Assembly: GCF_001548275.1 (NCBI RefSeq)
Contig: NZ_AP014945.1
Coordinates: forward strand, 1,710,001-1,742,000
DNA length: 32,000 nucleotides
Direction: 5' to 3'
From: Caldimicrobium thiodismutans
GTDB lineage: Bacteria; Desulfobacterota; Thermodesulfobacteria; Thermodesulfobacteriales; Thermodesulfobacteriaceae
Shown in pieces: positions 261 to 31,133 of this stretch. The notes beneath the pieces were generated by a model that was not told where the DNA came from, did not search any database, and saw only the letters and a list, made by a program, of their open reading frames with translations. Position 1 is the stretch's first letter. Each line of letters starts with the position of its first letter. A program made the translations under genes and the position numbers.

Positions 261-290
261 TTGACCTTTTTTAATTTTAAGTTATAAAAT
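261..290 (+). promoter_or_regulatory. Candidate sigma70-type promoter of the pilin operon
   Basis: TTGACC (261..266), 16-nt spacer, TATAAA (283..288); alternatively TAAAAT at 285..290 with an 18-nt spacer. The -10 box ends only 7-9 nt before the ATG at 298, and no Shine-Dalgarno sequence lies between. Confidence 0.45.
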
Positions 291-297
291 AATTTTT

Positions 298-2073
298 ATG
301 AGGAAAAGGGTTTTTGGGTTTACCCTTGTAGAGATAGCTATCATTCTTGTTATTCTTGGTTTTCTCATAGGTCTTGGTGCAGCCCTAATCGGGCCTTTAA
401 CCAAGCGAATGAAAATCAATGAGACCCGTGAAACCCTCGATGCCATAACCGAGGCAATTATCAGTTATGCAGCGGGAAATAAATGTCTCAGTGGTAATCT
501 TACTACTATGGGAGTTAGGAAAACCATGGATGCCTGGAATAAGGATATACACTACATTCCAGCTAAAGAGGTTGTTAACGGAAATTATACGCTTAACAAT
601 AATATTTATCAAGGTAATTGCACATTTTATGAAAAAGATATTTGCGGAAGAAAGGGAACCTCTCTTAAACTTAGGATATGTAATGATGCGACTTGTACAG
701 CTCCCACGGTTTATGAAAATATTGCTTTTGTCATTGTAAGTGGAGGTCCGAATTATAATCTTCAGACTTTTTATAATGATACTGAAGTCATAATTTATGC
801 TCCGGGAACGCCCAATGTAGATGGTTATCCTTTTGATTTAAGTAGGCCTGAGGAATTTGATGATATTGTTAAGTGGGTGACCCTTGATGAATTGAGGGTC
901 AAAATGGGTTGCCCAGGTGCCCAGTTAAGAATCATTACCTCAGAGCTTCCTGTAGCCTATCAAAATAGAGATTATAATGCTACCGTTTACGCACAAGGTG
1001 GAGTTCCTTACGCAAGTGGTGGAAATTATAAATGGAATTACACTTTACCTTCCGGATTTAATGGCAGTCCGGCTTCTGGCAATCAAGGAGGCAACTTAAC
1101 TATATCAGCAAGTCCTGTTAATATATGTCCAGGAACCTATCAAGTTACTGTAACAGTAAGTGATAACGATACTAACCAAGACACAAGAGTATTTAATATA
1201 TCTATCCAACCTGACCCTGTAAGAGTAAGCCCCTATACAGCTGTTTACTACGCTACAAAAAATGTCAGTTATAACAACAGTATTCCATTAAGTATAAGTG
1301 GAGGAAAACCTTCTTATACTGTTAGTTGCCCTCCGACGAGTTGTAATGGTCTTAATGTATCATCTTGTGATACTTCTTCTGTAACCATAACCGGAACACC
1401 CACTGAAACTGGAACTTGTAATTTTTCTATCACAATTAGAGATTCTTGTGGACAATTTACCACAGCTACTTACTCTGTTGTAATTCAAGATGTTTCATCT
1501 GGCGGAGGTGGTGGAGGTGGTGGAGGAGGAGGTGGTGGAGCACCAAGTTGCACCTTAACAGCCTCTTCAAATCCTATAGATTATAATACAAGAGCAACAC
1601 TTAACTGGACCATAATCAATGGGCCTGCTACTTATAATTTTAATCCGACAAGTGGAAATTGCACCAGTGGCACAGGTTCAACTGGAGGAACCTGTCAAAC
1701 AAATCCTTTAACTCGCAATACTCTGTTTACTTTAGTAGTTTCCAATGCATTTGGAAGTAATACTTGTTACTATAAAGTTTGTGTGAGACCTACGAGCGGC
1801 TCAACTTACGAAGTATGGAATGAGAGTGGCAGAACCATTGAAGCAAGGCTTCCAGATGGCACATGTAGGGAAGTCGATAACAATCGAGAAATCACAACCC
1901 AAGCGCAGGAGCTTGGCCCTGGACAGGCTATTTTGATTTATCCTTCAGCTGGACCTGTAGATTGCACTGGAACTCTTCTCTATATTATAACATACGATGA
2001 AGCAGTTTGTGCAGATGGTGATGATAAAGATTTAAAGGTCAATTTTACAGGTTCTGGCTTAGCAGATAGGTAA
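298..2073 (+). CDS. Modular prepilin-type protein (591 aa): N-terminal type IV pilin domain, two He_PIG-like Ig domains, Gly13 linker, Cys-rich C-terminal domains
   Basis: Class III signal peptide MRKRVFG|FTLVEIAIILVILGFL, with Glu at +5 and a hydrophobic alpha1-N helix. Pilin-like FVIVSGGPN and FDDIVKW motifs. Two repeats match the 'putative Ig' pattern (LP..Y....GG.P.Y.W....LP.G....isG.P...GtY.vtvtvsD). 20 Cys and 19 N-x-S/T sequons by hand count. Confidence 0.85.
   Translation: MRKRVFGFTLVEIAIILVILGFLIGLGAALIGPLTKRMKINETRETLDAITEAIISYAAGNKCLSGNLTTMGVRKTMDAWNKDIHYIPAKEVVNGNYTLNNNIYQGNCTFYEKDICGRKGTSLKLRICNDATCTAPTVYENIAFVIVSGGPNYNLQTFYNDTEVIIYAPGTPNVDGYPFDLSRPEEFDDIVKWVTLDELRVKMGCPGAQLRIITSELPVAYQNRDYNATVYAQGGVPYASGGNYKWNYTLPSGFNGSPASGNQGGNLTISASPVNICPGTYQVTVTVSDNDTNQDTRVFNISIQPDPVRVSPYTAVYYATKNVSYNNSIPLSISGGKPSYTVSCPPTSCNGLNVSSCDTSSVTITGTPTETGTCNFSITIRDSCGQFTTATYSVVIQDVSSGGGGGGGGGGGGGAPSCTLTASSNPIDYNTRATLNWTIINGPATYNFNPTSGNCTSGTGSTGGTCQTNPLTRNTLFTLVVSNAFGSNTCYYKVCVRPTSGSTYEVWNESGRTIEARLPDGTCREVDNNREITTQAQELGPGQAILIYPSAGPVDCTGTLLYIITYDEAVCADGDDKDLKVNFTGSGLADR
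1501..1539 (+). repeat. In-frame run of 13 glycine codons (GGC GGA GGT GGT GGA GGT GGT GGA GGA GGA GGT GGT GGA) inside the pilin gene
   Basis: Read directly from the sequence. It corresponds to codons 402-414 of the 298..2073 ORF and separates the Ig-like domains from the C-terminal Cys-rich part. Confidence 0.95.
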
Positions 2074-5100: not shown

Positions 5101-7036
5101 TATAGGTAACACCACTATCAAATCTATTGATGATACCGATGCAAAAACCTTCCTCAAAAACCTTTGGAATGGTGTTGCTGTAAGTGAAAGCCTTGGAATT
5201 TCTGTTGATGATACCTTTACTAATTGCCTTATTGAATACTTAAAAGGTAATCCTTCAGTTCCTTGTCTTTCAAATGCCACTATAAAGGACTATTTTTCCC
5301 GCAACCTAACCTTTGATGTAGGAAGCCTTTGTTCAGCCTCAGGTATAAGCGGAAATCACACCTGGAAGCTCGGAGATATTATTTTTTCTACACCAAGCAT
5401 TATATCTAATGAGCCTCTTAATATTTATCATGTGAGATATTTTGATTTTACATACAGAGCTTTCATTGCTAATGAAACTTATGCAAAAAGGACCACTTAT
5501 GCCTTTGTAGGGGCAAATGATGGTATGCTTCATGCTTTTAGGTTGGGTTATTTGAAATCAGCTGGAGATCAGGATAGACCTGTCAGATTAATTAATGCCT
5601 TTAACAGCGAAGCTATTGATTTAATAGGAAAGGAGGAATGGGCCTTCATTCCTCAGAATGCCCTTCCCTATCTTATCTGGTATGCCCATAAAGATTATTG
5701 TCATATTCCAACAGTTGATTACAGAACTTATGTCTTTGATGCCTCAATTGGTGGAGGTCCTGAAGAAACGAAAACTTCCGATTCCTGGAGAACCCTTTTA
5801 TTAGGGGTAATGGGGTTTGGAGGAAAGGAGATCTGTATCAAAAAACAGGGGAATAATTGTATAGAATCCTACAGTTCATCCATCTTTGTTTTAGATTTAA
5901 CAGATTGGTTAAAAGGAACCACCTCTGAGCCAAAGGTTTTATGGGAGAGGGCCCTGCCGGATAAAACTTTAACCCTATCTTTTCCTGCCATTGTCAGACT
6001 TGGAGAAAGGGATAAAAATGGAAAGTGGTATGTGGTGATCGGCTCGGGACCTAAGGATCCCCAAGGAACCAATTTTGTTAATCAAGCCAAAATATATTTC
6101 TTTGATCTAAGGACAGGAAGTTTAATAAAGGAACTCAATGTGGCTAATAATGTTTCTATAGGCGATATCTGGCCTGCAGATGTAGATAATGATTATCAAG
6201 ATGATGTTCTTTATTTCGGAACATATGATGCTAATTCCGGGAAGTTTTATAGGTTGAGCCTTAGAAATGATTCTATTACCCTTTCTTTTAATCCCAATGC
6301 ACCTGTTTTTTCAGCACCCACTTTTACCAAAGATAAATCAGGAAGGTTCTGGGTCTTTTTTGGGACAGGAAGATATTTAAGAAGCGAAGATAAAAATTTC
6401 AATTACTCCAATTATCTAATTGGTTTTATTGATGACTGTTGGTCAGGCAATTGCATGTCTACTTATAATTTTAACGACCTTTATAATGCAACAGGAGCAT
6501 TAGCTAATATTGTGGTTACAAGAACAACTCAAGTTTGCAAATGTGACTGGGATGGTTGTAACTCAACAGAAGTAGCTATAGATGGCTATTATAACGGAAC
6601 TGTCCCTCCTGCTATAATACGAGGTTGGTTTCATCAACTTGAAAAGGGAGAAACTTATAATGAACTAATTAATTCTCAACCTTTCGTATTTGGTGGTAAT
6701 TTGGATGCCCTTGTTTTTAGAACCTATAATGAAATCTGCAAAATCGGTGGAGAGACTTGGCTTATGGCTTTATGTTATGATACTGGAATTCCCTGTGGAA
6801 AGCCTTCTGCTCTTATTCATACTGCAGCAGTGGGTGAAACTATTACTATTAGATCAAAATATTTAGTTAGCCCTGGAGCCCCACCCCTTGGTCAGCCCTT
6901 TCAGGTAGCTACTTTTAAATCTCAAACAGGGCAATATGAAAAGATTGCTCAGGCCTCTTATGGAACAATTATAAGACTTACTCAGCAAGCGCAAGAGTCA
7001 GCAAGAGGAAGATTTATCCTGTGGTTAGAAAAATAA
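2186..7036 (+). CDS. pilY1: PilY1-like type IV pilus tip-associated adhesin / biogenesis factor (1616 aa)
   Basis: N-terminal signal-anchor. PilY1 hallmark motifs: AFVGANDGMLHAF (5501..5539) and LWYAAKWGGFDD...EWDKDGNGIPD. Three DxDxDG/DxDxNG-type Ca-binding loops (2405..2431, 4613..4639, 6179..6205). vWA-like FIVVLSD segment. Sits in an operon with minor pilins. Confidence 0.9.
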   Translation: MPEKAPLLWIKRILFVISVIFLSFIFRDTKPVTGGMSDYCYAPPIISETVPPLVMLVSGKDHKLYYEAYNDASDLDEDGKIDVGYKHSIDYYGYFDPYKCYKYEGSSAKFVPVRYTSNKYCGGADEWSGNFLNWLTMARIDVLRKVLYGGYRSTDSASETVLEATFIPQDAHSWGKEYSGSDTRQLTPFDPPGSGQRHLFCITSLSNGETRRIRVLLNKTNRIWEWASKERPVCDNSLGTPNYEYYVRVKVCDPAVGLEPNCKRYPAGAETYKPIGLLQKYGDGDGTKWCSKSLKPCNTDSDCNPAATHGLCVDKAKMYFGLITGSYEKNFSGGVLRKNIWSFLDEINSNTGIFQTSENTPGNIVLTFDRLRIIDFRYSDYSYEPGWQGAWVTTRPPNEGEFKNWGNPIAEMMYEAIRYFAGKTSPTGDFTYSKSQDGGLNLPKPEWGKFKSGRSTYRLYDVFPICAKPFIVVLSDIYNSYDSDKVPGSSFGSFSGDISGLNVSTLADLISSIEFIPGSYFIGQSGTNYDFICSAKDISSFSNIRGLCPEEPTKQGSYYPASIAYYGNKKSGGWRDNFSDQKPYTIKTLAVALSSPVPDIVFKVGDKTVRITPLGKSVSGELNVYQYCYQKCTFQRDANGNLRISNCQDGSYCPTNQIVDFYVDTINYDASGNLVYAKFRINFEDVEQGADHDMDAIVEYEIQPISSNQIRVKLTSNYAAGGIDQVLGFTISGTTEDGTWLVVKDKDVPDTADGDTPSVVAGMPLTWQKDFSVTGSTAGQLKPPLWYAAKWGGFDDMNGNDLPDLPSEWDKDGNGIPDTYFYVVNPLKLESQLNKAFAEILRRASSGATVATLTSRKGFSSLVLQPLFYPSYQSGEIEVNWIGMLKAFWTDFKANLREDTNLDKWLNIKNIVDKIFQLVVKEDEEPHAWYISNESTCSYDPTKIEALNLKPVFDAGCQLANRDPFSRKILVHIGNTTIKSIDDTDAKTFLKNLWNGVAVSESLGISVDDTFTNCLIEYLKGNPSVPCLSNATIKDYFSRNLTFDVGSLCSASGISGNHTWKLGDIIFSTPSIISNEPLNIYHVRYFDFTYRAFIANETYAKRTTYAFVGANDGMLHAFRLGYLKSAGDQDRPVRLINAFNSEAIDLIGKEEWAFIPQNALPYLIWYAHKDYCHIPTVDYRTYVFDASIGGGPEETKTSDSWRTLLLGVMGFGGKEICIKKQGNNCIESYSSSIFVLDLTDWLKGTTSEPKVLWERALPDKTLTLSFPAIVRLGERDKNGKWYVVIGSGPKDPQGTNFVNQAKIYFFDLRTGSLIKELNVANNVSIGDIWPADVDNDYQDDVLYFGTYDANSGKFYRLSLRNDSITLSFNPNAPVFSAPTFTKDKSGRFWVFFGTGRYLRSEDKNFNYSNYLIGFIDDCWSGNCMSTYNFNDLYNATGALANIVVTRTTQVCKCDWDGCNSTEVAIDGYYNGTVPPAIIRGWFHQLEKGETYNELINSQPFVFGGNLDALVFRTYNEICKIGGETWLMALCYDTGIPCGKPSALIHTAAVGETITIRSKYLVSPGAPPLGQPFQVATFKSQTGQYEKIAQASYGTIIRLTQQAQESARGRFILWLEK

Positions 7037-7521
7037 GGGGATATACTACTTTAGAATTGTTAATTTTAATTGCAATTCTTGCAATCTTATCAGCTATTTT
7101 TATCAGGGAATATTTAATCTATACAGCAAGAGAGCGTCTAAAAGGAGCAGCTAATGAAATTGCCTCTCAATTAAACTGGGTTAAAACGAAATCTATGATT
7201 TCCAAAAATCTTTATGGTATATGTTATGATAATAATACTCGCCAAATTTTAATTTTTGAGGAGAAAAATGGTGATGGAAATTATACTAATGGAATCGATT
7301 TGATTTATAAAATAATAAACATTTCAGAAAATTGGAGGGGAATAGAAGTAGTTGAAATAACAAGTAAACTATTATGTCCTCAAGCCTTTATTTTTGATAG
7401 AAGAGGTGAGTTGATAAGCGGAGGAGATAGTGGAAGTATAGTGCTTATAAATGCTTTTGGGGAGAAAATTAAAATTTCTATAAGTATTCTTGGAAGGATT
7501 AGCGTCCAATATGGCTCATAA
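7021..7521 (+). CDS. Minor pilin, FimT/GspH-like (prepilin-type N-terminal cleavage/methylation domain)
   Basis: GTG start overlaps the pilY1 stop by 16 nt. Leader MVRKIRG|YTTLELLILIAILAIL with Glu at +5. 166 aa. Positioned in the minor-pilin operon. Confidence 0.75.
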   Translation: MVRKIRGYTTLELLILIAILAILSAIFIREYLIYTARERLKGAANEIASQLNWVKTKSMISKNLYGICYDNNTRQILIFEEKNGDGNYTNGIDLIYKIINISENWRGIEVVEITSKLLCPQAFIFDRRGELISGGDSGSIVLINAFGEKIKISISILGRISVQYGS

Positions 7522-8092
7522 CAAACTTGCTCATAAGAAAAAACAGGGAATGACACTTCTTGAAATCCTTATTGCAATGTTAATTCTTGTATTCGTTATT
7601 GTAGGATTTATGAAAGCAACCACTGATTTTATGCTGTATTTAAAGGCTTCTAAAATTAATGCCAGAGCTAAAGAACTGGCTGAAAAATTGAGAAGTGGAA
7701 TCTTGAACTTGCCTCAGCTTTCTGCATGTTTCAATTCTTCTATCACTGGGGAGCTTAAATCTAATGCTACTGGAAATCAATCATTTATCACCTTTGATAG
7801 ACCTGATTTTTATGTAAAAGATTGTCCAAATGTAAATAACTGTATAAGTCAATTTGGATGTTTGTATTGTTATACTGGAGAAGAAATAATTTTAAGTAAT
7901 CAAATAAATTGCACAGTTGGATATCCTATAAGAGTTGGATATAATGCAGGAAAAGTTATATATAAAGATAATGAATCAGGACAAGAGATAGAAGTTGGTT
8001 CAGCTGTGGGGATTAAAGTATATTATATAGAACCTAAAACCAGAAGAGAAAAGGAAATTAATGTGCTTGTTTATAAAAAATATGAAGAATAA
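7511..8092 (+). CDS. Minor pilin, PilV-like
   Basis: The ORF is open from 7490. The ATG at 7511 gives MAHNKLAHKKKQG|MTLLEILIAMLILVF, a class III signal with Glu at +5. It overlaps the upstream gene by 11 nt. About 190 aa and Cys-rich. Confidence 0.7.
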   Translation: MAHNKLAHKKKQGMTLLEILIAMLILVFVIVGFMKATTDFMLYLKASKINARAKELAEKLRSGILNLPQLSACFNSSITGELKSNATGNQSFITFDRPDFYVKDCPNVNNCISQFGCLYCYTGEEIILSNQINCTVGYPIRVGYNAGKVIYKDNESGQEIEVGSAVGIKVYYIEPKTRREKEINVLVYKKYEE

Positions 8093-9047
8093 TGGATATA
8101 CTTTAATTGAAATACTTTTAGTTATGCTTCTTTTAGGAATACTAAGTGGGATTATATTTAGCACATATAGAAACTTTATTCAGGAATATAAATCTCAAAG
8201 TATAGGTGTGAGAAAGGAGATGGAACTTTTAAGTTTACAAATATATTTAAGAAAACTTATCCAGAGCATAGGTTTTGGAATACCAAGAGAAATCAGCAAT
8301 TATCAAATTTGGAGTTCTCCAAATTGCACAGATTCAAATTTATCTAAATTCAAAAATAGCAGAACTATTATAGGTTTAGCTAACGATTGTTCTATTTCTA
8401 ATGGGCCTAAACATGATAGGCTTTATTTTAGGAGCTTATTTGCAACTGGAGCAAAAGAGGCGGGATGTTGGTGGGTTATTTTACCGGATGGAGAAAAAAA
8501 GTCTATGGCTGTAAATAAATATGGATTTACATGCAATGCCATTTATGAAAATGATACATTATGTTATTATTTAGATGAAAATAGAAATTATCACAAAGAT
8601 TATCTTGATCAACCACTTAATTGCACCTCAAATTTAAAGGGTCCTGGTTTTTTATTTTTTTACACCAAAGGCAATGAAACACCTCCTGAAGTTTTTCGGC
8701 TGCACCTATCCGCCTTCGATGATAATGAGATAGCCCAAAAGCAGGCTTGTGCCCCAAAAAGTGGTAAATTAATGTTACAAAGGGAATGGAATATTCAAGC
8801 TCAACCCATTTTTGATTGTGTTGGAGGATTAAAATTTGATTTTATAGGTAATACTACTAATAACTTGCCATCTGCTATACAAGTATGCCTTCTTGTGCAA
8901 GTAAGTGGTAGAATGAGCACTAAAAGAGAGGTTCCTTTAAATTCTCAGTGTGGCCCTTTCCAGGAGGAGGATCCTGAATGGAAATATTATCGCTGGAGAG
9001 TTATAGAAGAGAGAATATCCTTAGAAAATTTAAGAGGTATCAAATGA
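8082..9047 (+). CDS. Minor pilin, PilW-like
   Basis: The ORF is open from 8061. The ATG at 8082 gives MKNNG|YTLIEILLVMLLLGIL with Glu at +5. It overlaps the upstream stop (8090..8092). About 320 aa, a size typical of PilW. Confidence 0.7.
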   Translation: MKNNGYTLIEILLVMLLLGILSGIIFSTYRNFIQEYKSQSIGVRKEMELLSLQIYLRKLIQSIGFGIPREISNYQIWSSPNCTDSNLSKFKNSRTIIGLANDCSISNGPKHDRLYFRSLFATGAKEAGCWWVILPDGEKKSMAVNKYGFTCNAIYENDTLCYYLDENRNYHKDYLDQPLNCTSNLKGPGFLFFYTKGNETPPEVFRLHLSAFDDNEIAQKQACAPKSGKLMLQREWNIQAQPIFDCVGGLKFDFIGNTTNNLPSAIQVCLLVQVSGRMSTKREVPLNSQCGPFQEEDPEWKYYRWRVIEERISLENLRGIK

Positions 9048-9547
9048 GGGGGAAATTGTCAATTCAAAGAGAGAGGGGAAGTGCTTTATTTACTGCTATA
9101 ATGTTTTCATTTATAGGCCTTCTTATTATAGCAGGGCTTGTTGCAGTGTGGTATAGATTAACTCATATTTTATTCCCTGTAAAAACTTATACATCAGTTA
9201 GAGAAGCCTCTGCAGGTGGTATTAAATTATTAGCATCTTATGTGGATCAAGGATACTTTTCCGAATTAGATAGAGGTATTTGTCCGCCAGGTACTTCCCC
9301 AACAGCCAATGGCACATGTTGTCTCGTAAATTTGAAATACAAACTTCTTGGCGAATCTAAGGAATATATTAATCCTATTACTATTTGTTTTTTGGGATAT
9401 CAACCTCAACCTGGTTTTGAAATTACAGGTGTTGCATACACTTCTCAGGCGGCAAGACTGGGATTAAATTATATTTATGGGTTTAATTCCACTGCCTATG
9501 GGCCAAATAATGTCACAGCCTATGTTGAAGCAGTTTATATTAAGTAA
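9044..9547 (+). CDS. pilX: PilX-like minor pilin / pilus assembly protein
   Basis: The ORF is open from 8978. The ATG at 9044 forms an ATGA overlap with the upstream stop. The N-terminus MRGKLSIQRERGSALFTAIMFSFIGLLIIAGL matches the PilX_N pattern (ErGsaL followed by a hydrophobic helix). Confidence 0.7.
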   Translation: MRGKLSIQRERGSALFTAIMFSFIGLLIIAGLVAVWYRLTHILFPVKTYTSVREASAGGIKLLASYVDQGYFSELDRGICPPGTSPTANGTCCLVNLKYKLLGESKEYINPITICFLGYQPQPGFEITGVAYTSQAARLGLNYIYGFNSTAYGPNNVTAYVEAVYIK

Positions 9548-11078: not shown

Positions 11079-11543
11079 ATGGAAAAGCAGGAGCTTCAAT
11101 CCCGGGAGATTTCTGTTTATGTGGATGGTTGTTCCCTTGGAAATCCAGGGCCAGGTGGGTATGGGGTTTTAATTAAAAAGGGAGGCAAAGAGATTGTCCT
11201 CAAGGGTGGAGAAGCAGAGACCACTAATAATCGGATGGAGCTTATGGCAGTTATTAAGGCCCTTTCATACTTTAAAAATAAAAGTAAAATTGTTGTTTAT
11301 GGGGATTCTGAATATGTGATAAAAGGAGCAACCGAATGGTTACCCCTCTGGAAAAAGAAAGGTTTTAAGACTTCGGAGGGGAAACCCGTTAAAAATCAGG
11401 ATCTCTGGAAGGAGCTTGAAAGATGGTTAAATTTTCACGAGGTAAGATTCATAAAAGTGCCTGCCCATAGTGGACATCCTGAAAACGAAAGAGTTGACCA
11501 GATAGCTAAGGCTGAGGCAAGGAAATGGAAGAGAAACTCTTAG
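11079..11543 (+). CDS. rnhA: Ribonuclease HI
   Basis: VYVDGCSLGNPGPGGYG...TNNRMELMAVIKAL...YGDSEYV...VKNQDLW...VPAHSGHPENERVDQIAK carries the canonical DEDD RNase H motifs. Confidence 0.9.
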   Translation: MEKQELQSREISVYVDGCSLGNPGPGGYGVLIKKGGKEIVLKGGEAETTNNRMELMAVIKALSYFKNKSKIVVYGDSEYVIKGATEWLPLWKKKGFKTSEGKPVKNQDLWKELERWLNFHEVRFIKVPAHSGHPENERVDQIAKAEARKWKRNS

Positions 11544-12091
11544 TGGGAATCACCGGGGCAAGTGGCTCCATCTATGCCTTATATTTTCTGGAGGCCCTGA
11601 AATCTCTAAAAGTGCCCTTTGAGATAATTATAACTGATGCAGGAAAACTCGTTTTTCAACATGAACTTGACCGACCCTGGCAGATTCTTAAGGAATTAAC
11701 TGATATGGTTTATGAGGAAAGGGAGATTTCAGCTCCCCCTGCCAGTGGATCAGCCCCTTACCGAGGCCTTGTAATTATTCCCTGCAGTATGGGGACCTTA
11801 GGAGGCATTGCTACCGGTCAAGCAAGAAATCTTCTTTTGAGAGCTGCAGATGTCATGCTTAAAGAGAGGAAACCCCTTGTCCTGGTAGTCAGGGAAACTC
11901 CCTTTAACCTTATCCATCTTCAAAATATGCTCCTTTTGACTCAGGCAGGAGCAGTGATTTACCCGGCTATGCCTGGCTTTTACCACAAGCCTGCATCCTT
12001 AGAAGAATTATTAAAACAATTTACAGAAAGACTTCTTCAATTTTTAAAAATTGCTGAGAATTCAAAGCCATGGAAGGGTCTATATTCATAA
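11525..12091 (+). CDS. ubiX: Flavin prenyltransferase UbiX/Pad1 family
   Basis: LVGITGASGSIYA...IIPCSMGTLGGIA.G...LL.RAADV.LKERKPLVLVVRETP is the typical UbiX signature. Overlaps rnhA by 19 nt. Confidence 0.85.
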   Translation: MEEKLLVGITGASGSIYALYFLEALKSLKVPFEIIITDAGKLVFQHELDRPWQILKELTDMVYEEREISAPPASGSAPYRGLVIIPCSMGTLGGIATGQARNLLLRAADVMLKERKPLVLVVRETPFNLIHLQNMLLLTQAGAVIYPAMPGFYHKPASLEELLKQFTERLLQFLKIAENSKPWKGLYS

Positions 12092-12128
12092 CACAAAATT
12101 AAATCTCTTCAAAATTTAAAATTAACCC

Positions 12129-12157
12129 TTGATATTTTTCAGAAAGTGGTTTATAAA
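12129..12157 (+). promoter_or_regulatory. Candidate sigma70-type promoter (TTGATA-17-TATAAA)
   Basis: TTGATA 12129..12134, 17-nt spacer, TATAAA 12152..12157. AGGAGG Shine-Dalgarno just before the ATG at 12213. Confidence 0.45.
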
Positions 12158-12212
12158 AAACACCATTAATGAGAATTTACCATTTTAAACTTACTCTTAA
12201 GGAGGGTTAAGG

Positions 12213-12641
12213 ATGAGGATTCTTGAAGATAGGCTTTATACCGAAAATCATCTCTGGGTTAAAAAGGAAAAGAAAAAGATAGTAAGAGTGGGAATAACTG
12301 ATTTTTTTTCAGCCAAAGAGATAGAAATCATTAATGTGGATCTCCCAGAAGAGGGGGAAGAATATGAAAAAGATGATGTCTTTGGAAGTATTGAAAGTAT
12401 TGAAGAAGAATTCAATCTTGTTATGCCTGTTTCCGGGGTAATAGTTTCTGTAAATGAGAAGGTTCTTGATGATGTGGATCTTTTAAATGAAGACCCCTAT
12501 GAAGAGGGCTGGTTGGTTAAGATTGAGATGGCCAATCCCTCTGAGCTGGAGGAACTTCTTCCAGCAGAGGACTATGAGTTAAAAATTGCCGAAGAGTTTG
12601 AGGAGGTAGTTCCTGAAAAGGTTTCTGAGGAGGAAGAGTAA
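12213..12641 (+). CDS. Glycine-cleavage H-protein-like protein lacking the lipoyl-lysine; acidic C-terminal tail
   Basis: GcvH fold motifs are present: Y...HLWV...VGITDF......VDLPEEG...GSIESIEEEF.LVMPVSG.IV.VNE......LLNEDPYEEGWLVKI. The position aligned to the lipoyl-Lys of the ESVK motif is Glu (codon 64, 12402..12404). Confidence 0.8.
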   Translation: MRILEDRLYTENHLWVKKEKKKIVRVGITDFFSAKEIEIINVDLPEEGEEYEKDDVFGSIESIEEEFNLVMPVSGVIVSVNEKVLDDVDLLNEDPYEEGWLVKIEMANPSELEELLPAEDYELKIAEEFEEVVPEKVSEEEE

Positions 12642-13580
12642 ATGCTTGCTCTGGTATTTCCTGGTCAGGGCTCCCAGTATCTCGGAATGGGAAAGGACTT
12701 CTGGGAAGCCTCTTCTAAGGCAAAGGAAATCTTCTCTCTGGCTGAGGAATTAACAGGGATTCCAGTTAAAAGGCTTGTCTTTGAAGGCCCCCTGGAAGAA
12801 TTAACCCTTACAGAAAACTTACAGGTTTCTTTAACCACTGTAAATATTGTAATTTTTGAGGCTTTAAAGGCCAATCTGGAAGAAAAATTTAAGCATTTGG
12901 TTTCTTTTAATGCCGGGCATAGCCTGGGAGAATTTAGCGCTCTTTATGCAAGCTCAGTTCTTTCCCTGGAGGATACCCTTAAAGCTGTTAAAAAAAGGGG
13001 GGAATTAATGGGGAAGGCTGGGGGTGATAAGGCCTCAGGGATGTATGCTATTTTAAATTTCTCTGAAGAAAGGCTTAAAGAGATCATATCTCAAACAAAG
13101 GGGCTTGTCATAATTTCAAATTATAATTCTCCCCGTCAGCTGGTGATAAGTGGGGAGGAGCAAGCTATTACTGAGGTAGCTGAAGCAGCTAAGTCCAAGG
13201 GAGCCAAGGTTGTAAGACTCAAGGTTAGTGCTGGGTTTCACAGCCCTCTTATGGAATCTGCAGAAAGAGAATTTGCAGGACTTCTGGATACCCTTAATTT
13301 TAGAGATGCTCAAATTCCTGTGGTTAGTAATGTCTCAGCTCAGGCTGAAAAATCTGGCGAGAGCCTTAAGGAGTTAATGAAAAGGCAGATGACCTCACCT
13401 GTTCGCTGGATTGAGGTTATAGAGTTTATCTATGCTCAAGGAGTTTCAACCTTTGTTGAGATAGGCCCAAAACAGGTCCTTAAGGGACTAATTTCACAAA
13501 TCCTTCAAGATAGACCCTTCAAATGCTACAATGTAGAAAATTTAAAGGATCTGGAAAATCTCTTGAAAGATCTTCTTTAA
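12642..13580 (+). CDS. fabD: Malonyl-CoA:ACP transacylase
   Basis: FPGQGSQYLGMG...GHSLGEFSAL (active-site Ser)...SNYNSPRQLVISG...VSAGFHSPLM. The ATG directly abuts the upstream stop. Confidence 0.9.
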   Translation: MLALVFPGQGSQYLGMGKDFWEASSKAKEIFSLAEELTGIPVKRLVFEGPLEELTLTENLQVSLTTVNIVIFEALKANLEEKFKHLVSFNAGHSLGEFSALYASSVLSLEDTLKAVKKRGELMGKAGGDKASGMYAILNFSEERLKEIISQTKGLVIISNYNSPRQLVISGEEQAITEVAEAAKSKGAKVVRLKVSAGFHSPLMESAEREFAGLLDTLNFRDAQIPVVSNVSAQAEKSGESLKELMKRQMTSPVRWIEVIEFIYAQGVSTFVEIGPKQVLKGLISQILQDRPFKCYNVENLKDLENLLKDLL

Positions 13581-26328: not shown

Positions 26329-28092
26329 ATGCAACTTGATCCAACCAAGATGAAAGACTGGGAAATTGCTTACGAGGCAGAAAAGAATATGAAGACCGTT
26401 TATCAACTTGGAGAGGAGATGGGTTTGACCAAGGAGGAACTACTCCCCTATGGTCATTATGTTGCTAAGATTGATTACAAGAGGGTACTTGAAAGGTTAA
26501 AAGATAAACCCAATGGTAAATATATCAATGTAACTGCTATTACCCCTACCCCTCTTGGAGAAGGGAAAACTACTACCCTTATAGGTCTTGTGCAGGGGCT
26601 TGGTAAAAGAGGGCAAAATGTTATTGGCTGTATCAGACAGCCCTCAGGAGGCCCTACTTTTAATATCAAGGGTTCAGCAGCCGGAGGTGGCCTTTCTCAG
26701 GTGATTCCTCTGGATAAATTTTCCCTTGGTCTTACAGGGGATATTAATGCAGTCATGAATGCCCATAATTTGGCCATGGTTGCCCTCACTTCAAGGATGC
26801 AGCATGAGGCCAATTACGATGATGAAACCCTTGCCAAGAAAGGCTTAAGAAGGTTAAACATTGACCCCAAAAGGGTTGAAATGGGCTGGGTGATTGATTT
26901 TTGTGCCCAGGCCTTAAGGCATATTGTGATTGGGCTGGGTGGAAAAAACGATGGTTATCCCATGGAGTCAAAATTCTGGATTGCAGTAGCCTCTGAGGTT
27001 ATGGCAATCCTTGCTGTAGCAAGGGATTTAAAGGATCTTAGAGAGAGAATTGGAAAGATTGTAGTTGCCTTTGATAAATTTGGTAATCCTGTTACAACGG
27101 AAGACTTGGATGTGGCAGGTGCCATGACTGCCTGGATGGTTGAGGCTATCAATCCTAATCTTATGCAGACTATTGAGGGACAGCCTGTGCTTGTGCATGC
27201 TGGCCCCTTTGCTAATATCGCTATCGGCCAAAACTCTATAATTGAGGATTATGTAGCTCTTAAGCTTGGAGATTATGTGGTCACGGAATCTGGCTTTGCT
27301 GCTGATATTGGGTTTGAGAAGTTCTGGAATATTAAGTGCAGACTTTCAGGCCTTATACCCAATGTCTCGGTAGTTGTAGCAACTATTAGGGCTCTAAAGT
27401 GCCATGGTGGTGCCCCCATTCCAAGGCCAGGGCAACCCATACCCAAAGAGTATCTTGAAGAAAATCTTGAATGGGTAGAAAAGGGCTGTGAAAATCTCCT
27501 TCATTGCGTAAATATCGTCAAAAAGAGCGGTGCTATCCCGGTTGTCTGTATAAATAAATTTTATGCAGACACAGAAAACGAGGTCAAGCTTGTGAGAAAG
27601 ATCTGTGAAGAGGCTGGAGTGAGAGTTGCCTATTCAGATCATTGGCTAAAAGGTGGAGAGGGAGCGGTTGAGCTTGCAGATGCGGTTATGGATGCCTGTA
27701 GAGAAACTCCTCAGTTTAGATTCCTCTATGAACTTGATGAACCCATCAAGACGAGGATTGAAAAGATTGCCAAGGAGGTCTATGGAGCAGATGGTGTGAT
27801 TTATATGCCTCCTGCTGAGGAAAAGATTAAGATCCTTGAGGCTAATCCAGAGTTGAGGAAACTTCCCATTTGTATGGTTAAAACCCATTTATCTCTTTCT
27901 GATGACCCTGCAAAGAAAGGTGTCCCCAAGGGATGGACTTTAAGGGTCAGAGATGTCTTAATCTTTAGAGGATCAGGTTTCATTGTGCCTGTTGCTGGAG
28001 ATATCAATCTTATGCCTGGAACAGCTTCGGATCCGGCCTATAGAAGAATTGATGTGGATGTGGAAACCGGAAAAGTTAAAGGACTTTTCTAA
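26329..28092 (+). CDS. fhs: Formate--tetrahydrofolate ligase
   Basis: ...[19 protein letters not shown]...L.......IRQPS.GP.F.IKG.AAGGG..Q..P......L..TGD; 587 aa, the canonical FTHFS size. Confidence 0.95.
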
Positions 28093-28116
28093 AAGAAAAA
28101 TATCAGGAGGAGCGAT

Positions 28117-29016
28117 ATGTCCGCAAAGATACTTGATGGAAAGGCTGTAGCAGAGAAAATCAGGCAGAATATAAAGAGAGAGGTTGAAGAGCTTAAAGGG
28201 AAAGGGATTACTCCAGGGCTGGTTACCATTCTGGTGGGGGAAAATCCGGCCTCTGTCTCTTATGTAACTGCCAAGCAAAAAACTGCTCATGAGCTTGGAT
28301 TTTATTCAGTACAGGAAAATCTTCCTGAAAATGTTTCTGAAGAGAAACTTTTGAAGATGATTGATAAATATAATAGGGATCCCCAGATTCATGGAATCCT
28401 TGTTCAGCTTCCTCTTCCCAAACACATCAATGAAAAGAGGGTTCTTTATGCCATTGATCCGAGAAAGGATGTAGATGGCTTTCATCCTGTCAATGTAGGC
28501 AAACTTGTTATAGGAGAGCCCTGTTTTATCCCCTGCACGCCTTACGGAGTGCTTATGCTTCTTGCTGAAACAGGAGTGCCTGTTGATGGGGCTGATGTGG
28601 TTGTAGTTGGAAGGAGCAATATAGTGGGAAAACCCGTTGCCATCTTGCTTATGCAGAAGAGAAAACCTGTGGGAAATGCAACTGTGACTGTCTGTCATAC
28701 CGGGACCAAAAATATGGCAGAACATACCAAAAGGGCAGATATCCTGATTGTAGCTGCAGGAGTCCCTAAATTTGTCACTGCAGATATGGTGAAAGAGGGT
28801 GTGGTTGTAATTGATGTGGGGGTTAATAGAATTGGAACCACTCCAGAAGGCAAGGCCAAGCTTTGTGGTGATGTGGATTTTGAAGGTGTTAAAGAAAAGG
28901 CAAGTTTTATTACTCCGGTTCCGGGTGGAGTTGGGCCTATGACCATAACCATGCTTATGAAAAATACTCTTGAGTCTGCCAAGATGTGGGCCGGGCTCCC
29001 CAGTGAGGTAGCATAG
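28117..29016 (+). CDS. folD: Bifunctional methylene-THF dehydrogenase / methenyl-THF cyclohydrolase
   Basis: ILDGKAVAEKI...PGLVTILVGENPASVSYV..K.K......G......L...........DP.IHGILVQLPLP......VDGFHP.N.G.....VVVGRSNIVGKP...LL.......VT.CH..T....PVPGGVGPMTI.MLM.NT. Confidence 0.95.
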   Translation: MSAKILDGKAVAEKIRQNIKREVEELKGKGITPGLVTILVGENPASVSYVTAKQKTAHELGFYSVQENLPENVSEEKLLKMIDKYNRDPQIHGILVQLPLPKHINEKRVLYAIDPRKDVDGFHPVNVGKLVIGEPCFIPCTPYGVLMLLAETGVPVDGADVVVVGRSNIVGKPVAILLMQKRKPVGNATVTVCHTGTKNMAEHTKRADILIVAAGVPKFVTADMVKEGVVVIDVGVNRIGTTPEGKAKLCGDVDFEGVKEKASFITPVPGGVGPMTITMLMKNTLESAKMWAGLPSEVA

Positions 29017-29046
29017 TGACTAAATTCACAAGTTCTTAATTTATTG

Positions 29047-29071
29047 TAACTTTAAAATTATTTTAAAGTTA
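29047..29071. promoter_or_regulatory. Perfect 25-bp AT-only palindrome (11-bp arms) 26 bp upstream of the cooS start; candidate operator or structure
   Basis: TAACTTTAAAA-TTA-TTTTAAAGTTA, read directly. Lies in the 80-bp folD-cooS spacer. Confidence 0.4.
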
Positions 29072-29096
29072 TAAAGATTTATAGGGAGGTGTTTTT

Positions 29097-31133
29097 ATGA
29101 TAGATGAAAGAGCAAGATTTGGTAAAGGGAGGCCCGGGGTGCAGACACAAACTGCAGAGGAACTATACAGTAAACTTAAAGAAGATGTGCTTACTGCTCC
29201 CAGAAGGGTTGAGAGGAGAGGGACTCTTCCATGTGCCTTTGGTAAGGGAGGGACCTGTTGTAGGGTCTGCAATATGGGACCCTGTCAGGTAGTGGAAGGT
29301 GTTGAGGAATTGAAAGGAGTCTGTGGAGCCTCTGCAGCTACAGTGGTAGCCAGAAATTTTGCCAGAATGGTTGCTGCAGGAACCTCAGCTCATTCTGATC
29401 ATGGAAGACATGTGGCTAAACTCTTTTACGAAGCTGTGCATGGAGAGGTTCCCTTTGAAGTGAGAGATAAGAGAAAGCTTAGAGTTGTTGCTCAGGCTTT
29501 TGGAGTAGATCCCAATCTTCCTGAAGGGGATCTTCTAAAAGAACTTGCAGATGCTGCTTTGAGAATATTTTCACAACAGGAGGGAGAAATAATTCTTACC
29601 CATAGAGCTCCAAAGCCCCTTCTTGAAAAGTGGAGACAATATGGAGTTGTTCCAAGGGGTGTAGATAGAGAGGTGGTTGAGCTCACGCACCGGACAACTA
29701 TCGGCGTTGACCAGAACTATAAAAATATTCTTATGGGGGCTGCAAGATGTTCTCTTGCGGATGGCTGGGGAGGAAGTATGCTTGCTACAGAACTTCAAGA
29801 TCTTTTGCTTGGAAATCCCCAGCCTATAAGGGCAAAAGTTAATATTGGTCTGGGGGTCTTAAGGCCTGATCATGTGAATGTGGCTGTGCATGGGCATGAT
29901 CCCCTTTTAGCTGATGCCTTAGCTCAGGCAAGTTATGACCCTGAGATAATTGAGGAGGCAAAAAGGGTTGGTGCTAAAGGAATTAACCTTTCCGGAATCT
30001 GTTGCACTGGAAATGAAGTTCTTATGCGTAAGGGGATACCTATTGCTGGATCTTTTATTCAGCAGGAAGTTGCTATTGCAACTGGAGCACTTGAAGCGGT
30101 TGTTGTTGATGTGCAGTGTATCATGCAAAATGTAGTTGAAATAGCTAAACACTTTCATACAGCAGTGATTACCACAAGTCCCATTGCCATGATGGAGGGG
30201 GCAACGCATATCCCCTTTGATGAAAAAAGGGCTTTAGAGGTTGCTAAGGAAATTTTAAGAACAGCTATTGCCAGATTTCCTCAGAGGGACCTTTCTAAGG
30301 TAAATATTCCCGATCAGAGTGTGGATATTGTGGCTGGGTTTAGTCATGAGGCCATTATGTATATCCTTGGAGGAAGATTCAGGGCAAGTTATAAACCATT
30401 AAATGAAAATATTATTAATGGAAAGATCCTTGGAATTGCAGCCATTGTGGGTTGCGATCAGTATAGAGTAAATGAGCCCATTCAGGTTGAGCTTGCTAAG
30501 GAGCTTATTGCTAATAATGTGCTTGTTCTTGCCACAGGTTGTTCGGCAACCAACATGGCTATGGCAGGGCTTCTTTCTCCTGAAGCAGCAAAGCTTGCAG
30601 GAGATGGTCTGAGAGAGGTTCTTGAAGCAGTAGGTTGTCCGCCTGTTCTTCACATGGGGGCTTGTGTGGATAATTCGCGAATTCTTATTGCAGCAACAGA
30701 GATAGTTCATACAGGAGGTCTTGGAGATGATATATTTCAGATTCCAGCGGTAGGATGTGCCCCTCAGTGGATGAGTGAAAAGGCTATCGCTATTGGGATG
30801 TATTTTGTTACCACGGGTGTTCAGGTTGTTTTTGGGCCTGATTTTCCAACCCTTGGAAGTAAAACTGTTACCGATTTTCTCTTCTATGAAATTGAAAATT
30901 ATTTTAATGGATGCTGGAGGGTTGCAAGGACTGCCAATGAGTTTGCTAATATTATGATAGATAGAATTAATGGTGGAAGAAGGGCTCTTGGAATTGATAA
31001 GCCCAAGCCAAGAGTCCTCTTTGATATGGCTATGAGAAGGGCTCTTGAAGGGCCAAGATATGTGCCTGTGTTCCATGGACTTGGTTGTTTTGGTTCCCAT
31101 GAAAAGCTAACCACTGAAGAAAAAACTGCATAG
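29097..31133 (+). CDS. cooS: Anaerobic carbon-monoxide dehydrogenase catalytic subunit (Ni-Fe CODH)
   Basis: N-terminal Cys cluster C.FG..G.CCR.C.MGPC, HGHDP, GICCTGNE, GCDQ... and C-cluster ligand context (...TGC....MGACVDNSR). 678 aa. Confidence 0.9.
   Translation: MIDERARFGKGRPGVQTQTAEELYSKLKEDVLTAPRRVERRGTLPCAFGKGGTCCRVCNMGPCQVVEGVEELKGVCGASAATVVARNFARMVAAGTSAHSDHGRHVAKLFYEAVHGEVPFEVRDKRKLRVVAQAFGVDPNLPEGDLLKELADAALRIFSQQEGEIILTHRAPKPLLEKWRQYGVVPRGVDREVVELTHRTTIGVDQNYKNILMGAARCSLADGWGGSMLATELQDLLLGNPQPIRAKVNIGLGVLRPDHVNVAVHGHDPLLADALAQASYDPEIIEEAKRVGAKGINLSGICCTGNEVLMRKGIPIAGSFIQQEVAIATGALEAVVVDVQCIMQNVVEIAKHFHTAVITTSPIAMMEGATHIPFDEKRALEVAKEILRTAIARFPQRDLSKVNIPDQSVDIVAGFSHEAIMYILGGRFRASYKPLNENIINGKILGIAAIVGCDQYRVNEPIQVELAKELIANNVLVLATGCSATNMAMAGLLSPEAAKLAGDGLREVLEAVGCPPVLHMGACVDNSRILIAATEIVHTGGLGDDIFQIPAVGCAPQWMSEKAIAIGMYFVTTGVQVVFGPDFPTLGSKTVTDFLFYEIENYFNGCWRVARTANEFANIMIDRINGGRRALGIDKPKPRVLFDMAMRRALEGPRYVPVFHGLGCFGSHEKLTTEEKTA

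Follow-up and report, generated by a model that had tools for sequence, protein, structure and literature searches.

A probable modular type IV pilin of Caldimicrobium thiodismutans, encoded by an apparently mosaic gene, represents a widespread and uncharacterised family

We analysed 32,000 nucleotides of Caldimicrobium thiodismutans DNA (contig NZ_AP014945.1, positions 1,710,001 to 1,742,000; hereafter the window), in which a gene for a large pilin-like protein stands directly 5' of genes for a PilY1-like protein and four minor pilins (Table 1). We consider it about 70% probable that this protein belongs to the modular type IV pilins, as a member of a family that is widespread but uncharacterised. 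From the N terminus, it comprises a leader, a pilin module, two He_PIG domains with an immunoglobulin (Ig)-like fold (Ig1 and Ig2), a run of 13 Gly residues (Gly13) and two further domains, termed C1 and C2. The open reading frame is not a product of chance, because a word-index search retrieved 59 relatives and a scan that took one genome for each species found relatives in at least 120 species genomes. The class of modular pilins is well established; what deserves note in this case is a pilin head without a structural neighbour, the undescribed terminal domain C2, and an apparent exchange of cassettes between phyla. Relatives are referred to below by protein (P) and locus (L) numbers.

Table 1. 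Positions of the pilin gene, its parts and its neighbours, and the relatives that share single parts (positions in window nucleotides unless a locus is named; percentages are identities)
Feature	Position or relatives	Strand	Details
Sigma-70-like promoter match (TTGACC, 18 nt, TAAAAT)	261..290	+	10/12 consensus matches; consensus match only
Probable modular type IV pilin gene	298..2073	+	ATG at 298, stop 2071-2073, 591 aa
Prepilin leader MRKRVFG (aa 1-7)	298..318	+	predicted cleavage before Phe8; read from sequence
Pilin module (aa 8-205)	319..912	+	52-residue alpha-1 helix, disulfide-rich beta-sheet head with 6 Cys, C-terminal signature EFDDIVKWVTLDELRVKMGC
Ig1, He_PIG (aa 206-305)	913..1212	+	PF05345, 31.7 bits, profile positions 8-95 of 96
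Ig2, He_PIG-like (aa 306-400)	1213..1497	+	PF05345, 23.0 bits, E 1.1e-4, profile positions 5-95 of 96
Gly13 tether (aa 402-414)	1501..1539	+	imperfect (GGN)13 tract
C1, Ig-like beta-sandwich (aa 415-500)	1540..1797	+	AlphaFold2, Foldseek; no Pfam match
C2, terminal beta domain of about 90 aa (aa 501-591)	1798..2070	+	alignment, AlphaFold2
Putative exchanged cassette (pilin-module end, Ig1, Ig2, up to the Gly run)	850..1538 (gene nt 553-1241)	+	87.1% DNA identity to L004, 699 alignment columns
Counterparts of the cassette	L004 8140-8835; L003 10584-11269		
PilY1-like gene, 1616 aa	2186..7036	+	PF05567, E 1.5e-13
GspH/FimT-like minor pilin	7021..7521	+	overlaps neighbours
PilV-like minor pilin	7490..8092	+	overlaps neighbours
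328-aa pilin	8061..9047	+	overlaps neighbours
PilX-like protein, 189 aa	8978..9547	+	overlaps neighbour
C2 outside the modular pilin family	P0076 (L112), P0163 (L114, L115), P0071 (L113)		
Pilin module, window against relatives	P0002 83%, P0001 (Caldimicrobium) 65%, P0008 (S. azorense) 44%		
Ig1/Ig2, window against relatives	P0002 46/50%, P0001 48/47%, P0015 (L004) 77/87%, P0008 63/77%		
C1/C2, window against relatives	P0002 38/44%, P0001 75/66%, P0015 (L004) 33/45%, P0008 C1 absent/42%		

The leader MRKRVFG is followed by FTLVEIAIILVILGFLIGLGAALIG, with Gly at position -1, Phe at +1, Glu at +5 and about 20 hydrophobic residues thereafter. This short hydrophilic leader with a terminal Gly, the hydrophobic run and Glu+5 together make up a class III signal peptide, and the family alignment revealed that the leader, Gly-1 and Glu+5 are kept across the relatives. 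The AlphaFold2 model of the pilin module (residues 1-215, from an alignment of 31 sequences) has a predicted local distance difference test score (pLDDT) of 92.5 and has a helix at residues 10-61 ahead of about eight beta strands and, at the C terminus, a short second helix, which in the model is the lollipop topology of pilins. A profile of the module matched solved pilins on alpha-1, namely a Geobacter pilin (E 2.5e-6) and residues 1-78 of gonococcal PilE (E 2.1e-5), as well as Thermus PilA5 and Myxococcus PilA. N_methyl (PF07963) was matched at E <= 0.01 by 13 of the 16 full-length relatives. A strongly conserved signature, EFDDIVKWVTLDELR-x-K-x-GC in the family alignment, closes the module. 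The 20 Cys residues of the protein are at positions 63, 108, 116, 128, 133, 205, 277, 344, 349, 357, 374, 384, 418, 455, 466, 490, 495, 523, 556 and 571.

As a whole, the protein matched the He_PIG profile (PF05345) in two stretches with an E-value of 3.4e-7 and 31.1 bits, the gathering score being 24. Ig1 reaches this gathering score by itself; the score of Ig2 is just under it, and its alignment is full-length. He_PIG was also found in 7 of the 16 relatives, with a best E-value of 9.5e-22. For the part C-terminal to Gly13, the AlphaFold2 model (residues 414-591, from an alignment of 17 sequences) reached a mean pLDDT of 95.5 and is composed of two all-beta domains, C1 and C2. Foldseek searches with this model against the PDB returned only tandem Ig-like, PKD or FN3 domains, including GhpA grappling-hook fragments (E 2e-5), titin and RPTP, and against BFVD phage Ig-like structural proteins; neither database yielded anything specific to C2. 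Likewise, a C2-only profile found no credible match in Pfam or among PDB sequences.

An earlier reading of this DNA (the preliminary description) had listed the cleavage site MRKRVFG/FTLVE, a length of 591 residues, 20 Cys and a 13-Gly linker, all of which are present as described. Its claim of about 200 residues of pilin-like sequence is borne out by the alpha-1 matches to solved pilins and by the predicted helix and beta-sheet. The two repeats of He_PIG pattern likewise held up in the Pfam check, the second being marginally sub-threshold, and the middle part of the protein is Ig-like. Regarding the C terminus, the Cys-rich stretch of about 175 residues does exist, but it is not unassignable as had been stated, since modelling and Foldseek resolve it into two beta-sandwiches, of which the last is a new sequence family.

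A profile of C1 and C2 together, run against 1.84 billion representatives, gave 271 matches at E <= 0.001, 118 at E <= 1e-10 and 42 at E <= 1e-30; a word-index search with the C-terminal 178 residues gave two close fragments and nothing else. Elsewhere C1 serves as a repeat unit, of which large proteins contain as many as 15 copies. Domain counts place C2 mostly as the last domain, at the extreme C terminus. In the C2 alignment, YRVWN stands close to the beginning, two Cys are invariant, and an acidic D-x-N/D-x-D-G/C-x-V-N loop (ADGDDKD in the window protein) and a terminal DR are further marks. Outside the modular pilin family, C2 is joined to PilX-like N-termini, in P0076 and P0163, each of which comes after two or three small pilin genes, and also to a BACON protein with a Sec signal that is itself last in a run of pilin-type genes. 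The C2-bearing PilX-like pilins and the BACON protein are each encoded last in their own minor-pilin gene run. Since C2 occurs on different pilus proteins and is mostly terminal, its sequence context gives it the look of an undescribed pilus-associated end domain.

The word-index relative closest to the window protein, from a Caldimicrobium metagenome-assembled genome (MAG), is 54% identical over the full length, and further ones belong to Sulfurihydrogenibium azorense, Nitrospirota, Syntrophaceae and Sulfurimonas. Sixteen full-length relatives can be aligned over their whole length, with identities of 34-59%. At the position of Gly13 they carry a Gly/Ser/Thr-rich linker of varying length (alignment columns ~597-632), which is found at the same site in all 16 apart from P0002 and P0030, in which it is missing or very short. 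The genome scan extends the family over Thermodesulfobacteriaceae, Thermodesulfovibrionales/Nitrospirota, Desulfosarcina and other Desulfobacterales, Aquificota, Deferribacteres, Syntrophorhabdus, Geobacteraceae and Sulfurimonas. Its members have the pilin module in common and differ in the rest: the number of Ig domains ranges from one to several, C1 and C2 may each be present or absent, and some members contain PF18483 or fn3 instead. A metagenome scan for nearer relatives of the pilin found none above 52% identity, and exact look-ups of the window's pilin and PilY1-like protein retrieved neither. A 52%-identical relative lies on a 1.9-kb contig labelled 'archaeon MAG' (L010, JBAMLI010000105.1), and a relative of the PilY1-like protein (P0253) is labelled Nitrososphaerota; both archaeal labels are probably binning errors.

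A modular pilin has been defined as an N-terminal pilin motif together with at least one extra domain that is not specific to pilus biology (PMC8179133). The window protein has such a motif, a He_PIG domain above the gathering score and two further beta-sandwiches, and its earlier assignment as a modular type IV pilin therefore stands on the definition of the class. The accompanying statement that the protein is rare and of an unrecognised architecture did not survive. The modular pilins catalogued by Raynaud et al. (2021) number over 1,200 and fall into 264 architectures, and PF05345, of unknown function, is among the extra domains found in the 15 commonest architectures of modular pilins (PMC8179133); the family itself occurs in at least 120 species genomes, as given above. 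A literature search found no paper on this pilin family.

We surveyed 111 relative loci (80 from genomes, 24 from metagenomes and 7 further ones) with up to 10 kb of flank on each side. At least two of the genes for a secretin, an MshEN-domain ATPase, a T2SSF platform protein and an AAA_22 ATPase, a set that we call MSH-like, accompany the family gene in 47 of the 80 genome loci and in 32 of the 48 loci of at least 15 kb. A pilin of about 205 residues (GFTLVELAIVLVIIGIILGAVLKGQELIFNAKVKRL...) adjoins the family gene in 47 of the 80 genome loci, for example at 9371-9988 of L001, a Caldimicrobium MAG. This 205-residue pilin has a strong N_methyl match (30.6 bits) and is likely the major pilin of the MSH-like system. 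The idea that it is a stand-alone copy of the window's pilin module was rejected, as the likeness does not extend beyond the first ~50 residues; no copy of the 205-residue pilin is encoded in the window. At L001, the genes follow one another in the order 205-residue pilin, modular pilin, AAA_22 ATPase, a 425-residue protein, two small proteins, secretin, TPR protein, MshE-type ATPase and platform protein; from the AAA_22 ATPase onwards, we read this order as a putative MshM-I-J-K-L-N-E-G series. PilD is encoded about 3 kb 5' in the two closest relatives with context, L001 (Pfam match to the A24 peptidase) and L008 (tblastn). A pairing of the modular pilin with a TPR gene also recurs, a TPR relative being present in 21 of the surveyed loci.

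The presence of two pilin genes at the MSH-like loci of relatives points to a modular minor pilin of low abundance, associated with the tip or with initiation, which by analogy with CofB and TcpB of type IVb pili or with PilB and PilC of Streptococcus sanguinis is the most likely role of the window protein. If the protein were instead the major structural subunit of a filament of its own, an Ig stalk on each subunit would produce a bottle-brush fibre. The well conserved pilin module with its Glu+5 would suit such a subunit, and at L006 and L007 the modular pilin is the sole pilin gene nearby: a TPR gene for about 300 residues (11999-12913 and 11276-12172, respectively) is all that accompanies it on the 3' side, and no other pilus gene lies within 10 kb. 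We regard this as quite improbable, given the canonical 205-residue pilin alongside in 47 of the 80 genome loci and the minor-subunit status of the modular pilins characterised so far (PMC8179133); moreover, about 400 extra residues per subunit would, in our estimation, be hard to pass through a secretin. Even less probable is a protein that never polymerises, in which the class III signal would only anchor it in the inner membrane or target it for surface display, as on non-filament proteins, with the Ig stalk spanning the periplasm. This could account for a head without a detectable structural match to solved pilins and for the occurrence of C2 on Sec-signal proteins, but not easily for the full 52-residue alpha-1 with its Glu+5 or for the conserved linkage to secretin, ATPase and platform genes, and the gene for the Sec-signal C2 protein itself lies in a pilin operon.

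The window copy has different neighbours, and the preliminary description had taken the modular pilin for the first gene of a PilY1/minor-pilin operon. Developed further, this reading would make the protein a fifth, PilE-like member of the downstream PilY1/FimT-PilV-PilW-PilX priming complex, co-transcribed with it, linking the complex to the type IVa pilus (T4aP) shaft and serving as a second adhesin beside PilY1. The adjacency is real, with both genes on the same strand, a gap of 112 nucleotides and no terminator-like site between 2073 and 2186. The downstream set also contains PilY1 and GspH/FimT-, PilV-, PilW- and PilX-like proteins without a PilE-like pilin, and the Glu+5 of the modular pilin is in place. 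However, the linkage is not conserved. The PilY1-like protein and the FimT-, PilV-, PilW- and PilX-like proteins of the window, used as tblastn queries against the fetched stretches, were found in 0 of the 111 relative loci. Conservation of PilY1 itself is good, with more than 3,865 relatives, of which the best reaches about 61% identity. In its closest relative with context (L116, 60% identical) the pilus genes begin with PilY1; the genes ahead of it, for a glycoside hydrolase and a nucleotidyl-transferase, belong to sugar metabolism, and there is no such pilin 5'. Conserved co-occurrence with a T4aP PilY1/core minor-pilin operon was thus not observed. In addition, the PilY1 gene has a good ribosome-binding site of its own (GGGTGG), and by eye the gap contains TTGACT and TAAAAT about 15 nucleotides apart, which the promoter scan, covering spacings of 16-18 nucleotides, did not report. 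With a different machine accompanying the family in 47 of the 80 genome loci, membership of the pilin in the PilY1 complex is unlikely.

Within the PilY1-like protein, a beta-propeller match is confined to residues 1062-1360, and relatives also bear PF28373. The four minor-pilin genes that follow overlap by 16-70 nucleotides, an arrangement suggesting that they may be translationally coupled.

The identities of the window pilin to its relatives disagree from domain to domain (Table 1), and its C1 and C2 are 80% and 62% identical to those of the fragment P0060. At the DNA level, 90-nucleotide segments of the cassette are 83-98% identical to L004, whereas its flanks are 27-57% identical to L004 and 50-76% to the Thermodesulfobacteriaceae loci L001 and L008. 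Over 6.5 kb of assembly genes in its flanks, L004 is about 80% identical in DNA to the S. azorense locus, indicating that it is Sulfurihydrogenibium-like (Aquificota). GcvH and FabD of the window are 76-79% and 68-73% identical at the protein level to their counterparts at L001 and L008, which marks the window as Caldimicrobium-related. The 5' breakpoint falls in the conserved junction where the pilin module ends and Ig1 starts, and the 3' breakpoint at the Gly tract. The GC content at third codon positions (GC3) is 0.18-0.22 in the cassette and thus below the 0.31 of the pilin module, a hint that the donor had a lower GC content. P0002 presents a second swap, with a pilin module 83% identical to that of the window and C1 and C2 97% and 86% identical to those of the Sulfurihydrogenibium-like P0015. 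From these comparisons the gene appears to be a mosaic in which a Sulfurihydrogenibium-like Ig1-Ig2 cassette sits between Caldimicrobium-like flanks, and this apparent swapping of parts between unrelated hot-spring bacteria is its most unusual feature. At L004 itself, the modular pilin (7513-9376) is split by a frameshift into open reading frames at 7513-8280 and 8387-9376, and this copy is either a pseudogene or an assembly error.

Similar hot-spring material was the source of both relatives, and reads from co-occurring Caldimicrobium-like and Sulfurihydrogenibium-like populations might in principle have been joined into an assembly chimera. We find this scarcely credible because the cassette is 87%, not about 100%, identical to L004, the sequence on either side of it is again of one and the same Caldimicrobium-like type, the breakpoints coincide with domain boundaries and leave the reading frame intact, and the independent protein P0002 shows a second swap that involves a different module. 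The mosaic gene and the distribution of C2 may be combined into a broader proposal, which we put forward tentatively and regard as possible though rather doubtful. C2 would be an undescribed pilus-tip effector domain carried interchangeably by three kinds of protein (this pilin module, PilX-like pilins, and proteins other than pilins whose genes come last in a minor-pilin run), and at the same time the family would be a cassette system, the adhesin or stalk modules of which recombine as wholes between distant bacteria of shared hot-spring habitats (Thermodesulfobacteriota and Aquificota) with crossovers at the junction EFDDIVKWVTLDELR...GCPGAQLRIIT and at the Gly-codon tract.

In the mode of action that we propose for the modular pilin, a PilD-type prepilin peptidase would remove MRKRVFG, and alpha-1 would then insert the subunit into a type IV filament, with Glu+5 kept as in subunits that have others below them. 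The Ig stalk and the flexible tether would hold C2 about 15-20 nm off the filament as a binding (adhesin) head, a distance that we estimated from approximately 4 nm per Ig-like domain. In the relatives, the partner machine would be the MSH-like cluster with essentially two pilin genes, the GspG/MshA-like pilin of about 205 residues and the modular pilin. The family would evolve through exchange of whole modules, also between phyla. A pilin anchor bearing a stalk of four antibody-like domains probably serves adhesion. The suggestion in the preliminary description that the protein shows off a binding module on a pilus accordingly keeps its place as the most reasonable function, and modular pilins acting as filament-presented adhesins have published precedent (PMC8179133).

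Several observations weigh against the assignment as a modular minor pilin with an adhesive tip. N_methyl scores for the window pilin itself are 17.5-19.4 bits, below the cut-off of 21.2. Foldseek against the PDB gave nothing significant for the head, the best matches to pilins having E-values of 1.4 and 2.1; the long straight helix may hinder matching in this search, and the head as modelled would be divergent and family-specific. The 32-kb window contains no PilD, secretin, ATPase or platform gene, the rest of it being housekeeping genes, and the window copy adjoins a PilY1/minor-pilin set of T4aP type instead of an MSH-like cluster. In about one-third of the long loci of relatives, L006 and L007 among them, the neighbourhood shows no pilus genes. 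The acidic loop of C2 resembles the calcium-binding DxDxDG loop by eye only, and no ligand or binding site was identified in C2. Finally, the placement at the tip as opposed to the shaft, and the status as a minor as opposed to a major subunit, are what we infer.

The window begins 297 nucleotides 5' of the pilin gene. This upstream stretch (nucleotides 1-297) contains no open reading frame and no Rfam match; hairpins are located at 117-140 and 171-190, together with divergent promoter-like sites. A strong leftward promoter-like site (62 to 35, TTGACA-16-TAATAT) suggests from its sequence that a divergent gene may lie past the window edge. No Shine-Dalgarno sequence is visible before the pilin ATG in the upstream sequence. 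A sigma-54 promoter was sought by eye for both the pilin and PilY1 genes and rejected, TGGCAC before PilY1 being without a proper -12 element. Farther downstream, a YhgA-like putative transposase (PF04754, 16786-17796) stands amid the housekeeping genes, and genes for formate-tetrahydrofolate ligase, FolD and a prismane/CO-dehydrogenase family protein stand in a row at 26329-31133, consistent with an autotroph of the Thermodesulfobacteriaceae that uses a C1 pathway. Scans of the window for tRNA genes and Rfam families found nothing.

How simple pilus fibres gain many binding specificities is an open question, to which modular pilins are the current answer. Few modular pilins have been studied, mostly from pathogens, and the present family brings them into thermophilic, anaerobic environmental lineages. 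It also offers C2 as a new, confidently modelled terminal domain that would mark pilus-displayed proteins, as well as what appears to be a clean natural case in which modules were swapped between phyla and the breakpoints coincide with domain boundaries. Should this swapping be real, it would constitute a route by which adhesion specificity spreads in a community, and the linker and the junction would be candidate sites for engineering. If C2 is an effector domain and the family a cassette system, the surface specificity of pili would become a trait that members of a microbial community can trade horizontally. These findings leave the general understanding of type IV pili as it is, and their value is incremental.

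Among known systems, the loci of the relatives share with MSHA systems a secretin, an MshEN ATPase, a T2SSF protein, an AAA_22 (MshM/ExeA-like) ATPase, a TPR (MshN-like) protein and a pilin of about 205 residues, usually in one locus. The mandatory genes of MSH systems are mshA, mshE, mshG and mshL as well as mshM (Denise et al. 2019, PMC6668835). Because this likeness rests on Pfam domains and gene order and not on the published MacSyFinder models, and because MshEN and AAA_22 domains also occur outside MSH systems, we describe the loci as MSH-like only. The structural genes MshB, C, D, O, P and Q of Vibrio MSHA were not seen in the relatives' loci, and the window itself has none of the MSHA cluster genes.

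ComZ of Thermus thermophilus is likewise a large, pilus-associated, pilin-like protein of a thermophile with an added beta-rich module (PMC8179133). Its extra domain is a beta-solenoid with a DNA-related role (PMC8179133), in contrast to the C-terminal string of Ig-like domains in the window pilin, and neither the family profile nor the pilin-module profile gave a sequence match to ComZ.

Type IVb systems, to which CofB and the TcpB of Vibrio cholerae TCP belong as large minor pilins, are generally described as having one major and one large minor pilin, and the two-pilin MSH-like loci of the family are comparable to this arrangement. On paper, CofB of enterotoxigenic Escherichia coli (CFA/III) has a similar build, with a pilin module, a flexible linker, beta-repeat and beta-sandwich domains and a predicted trimeric tip (PMC8179133). 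The resemblance to CofB and TcpB is architectural only, as neither was matched among PDB sequences by the full-length family profile or the pilin-module profile. Unlike in these type IVb systems, the family leader is short and type IVa-like, and the partner machinery is MSH-like.

The closest conceptual parallels are the modular pilins catalogued by Raynaud et al., with which the window protein shares an N-terminal pilin module with a class III signal, extra C-terminal domains and the expected binding of ligands presented on a filament. PF05345, the first domain added in the window protein, belongs to the repertoire of that class, whereas the terminal C2 is absent from Pfam. The modular pilins that have been studied are PilB (pilin and vWA) and PilC (pilin and lectin) of Streptococcus sanguinis (PMC8179133). 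The window pilin has no sequence similarity to them past alpha-1, and its host is a diderm. PilB and PilC each carry one bulky module on a short loop, whereas the window pilin bears four tandem beta-sandwiches with a Gly13 tether. For PilB and PilC, as for CofB and TcpB, exposure at the tip and direct binding of ligands have been proposed or shown (PMC8179133).

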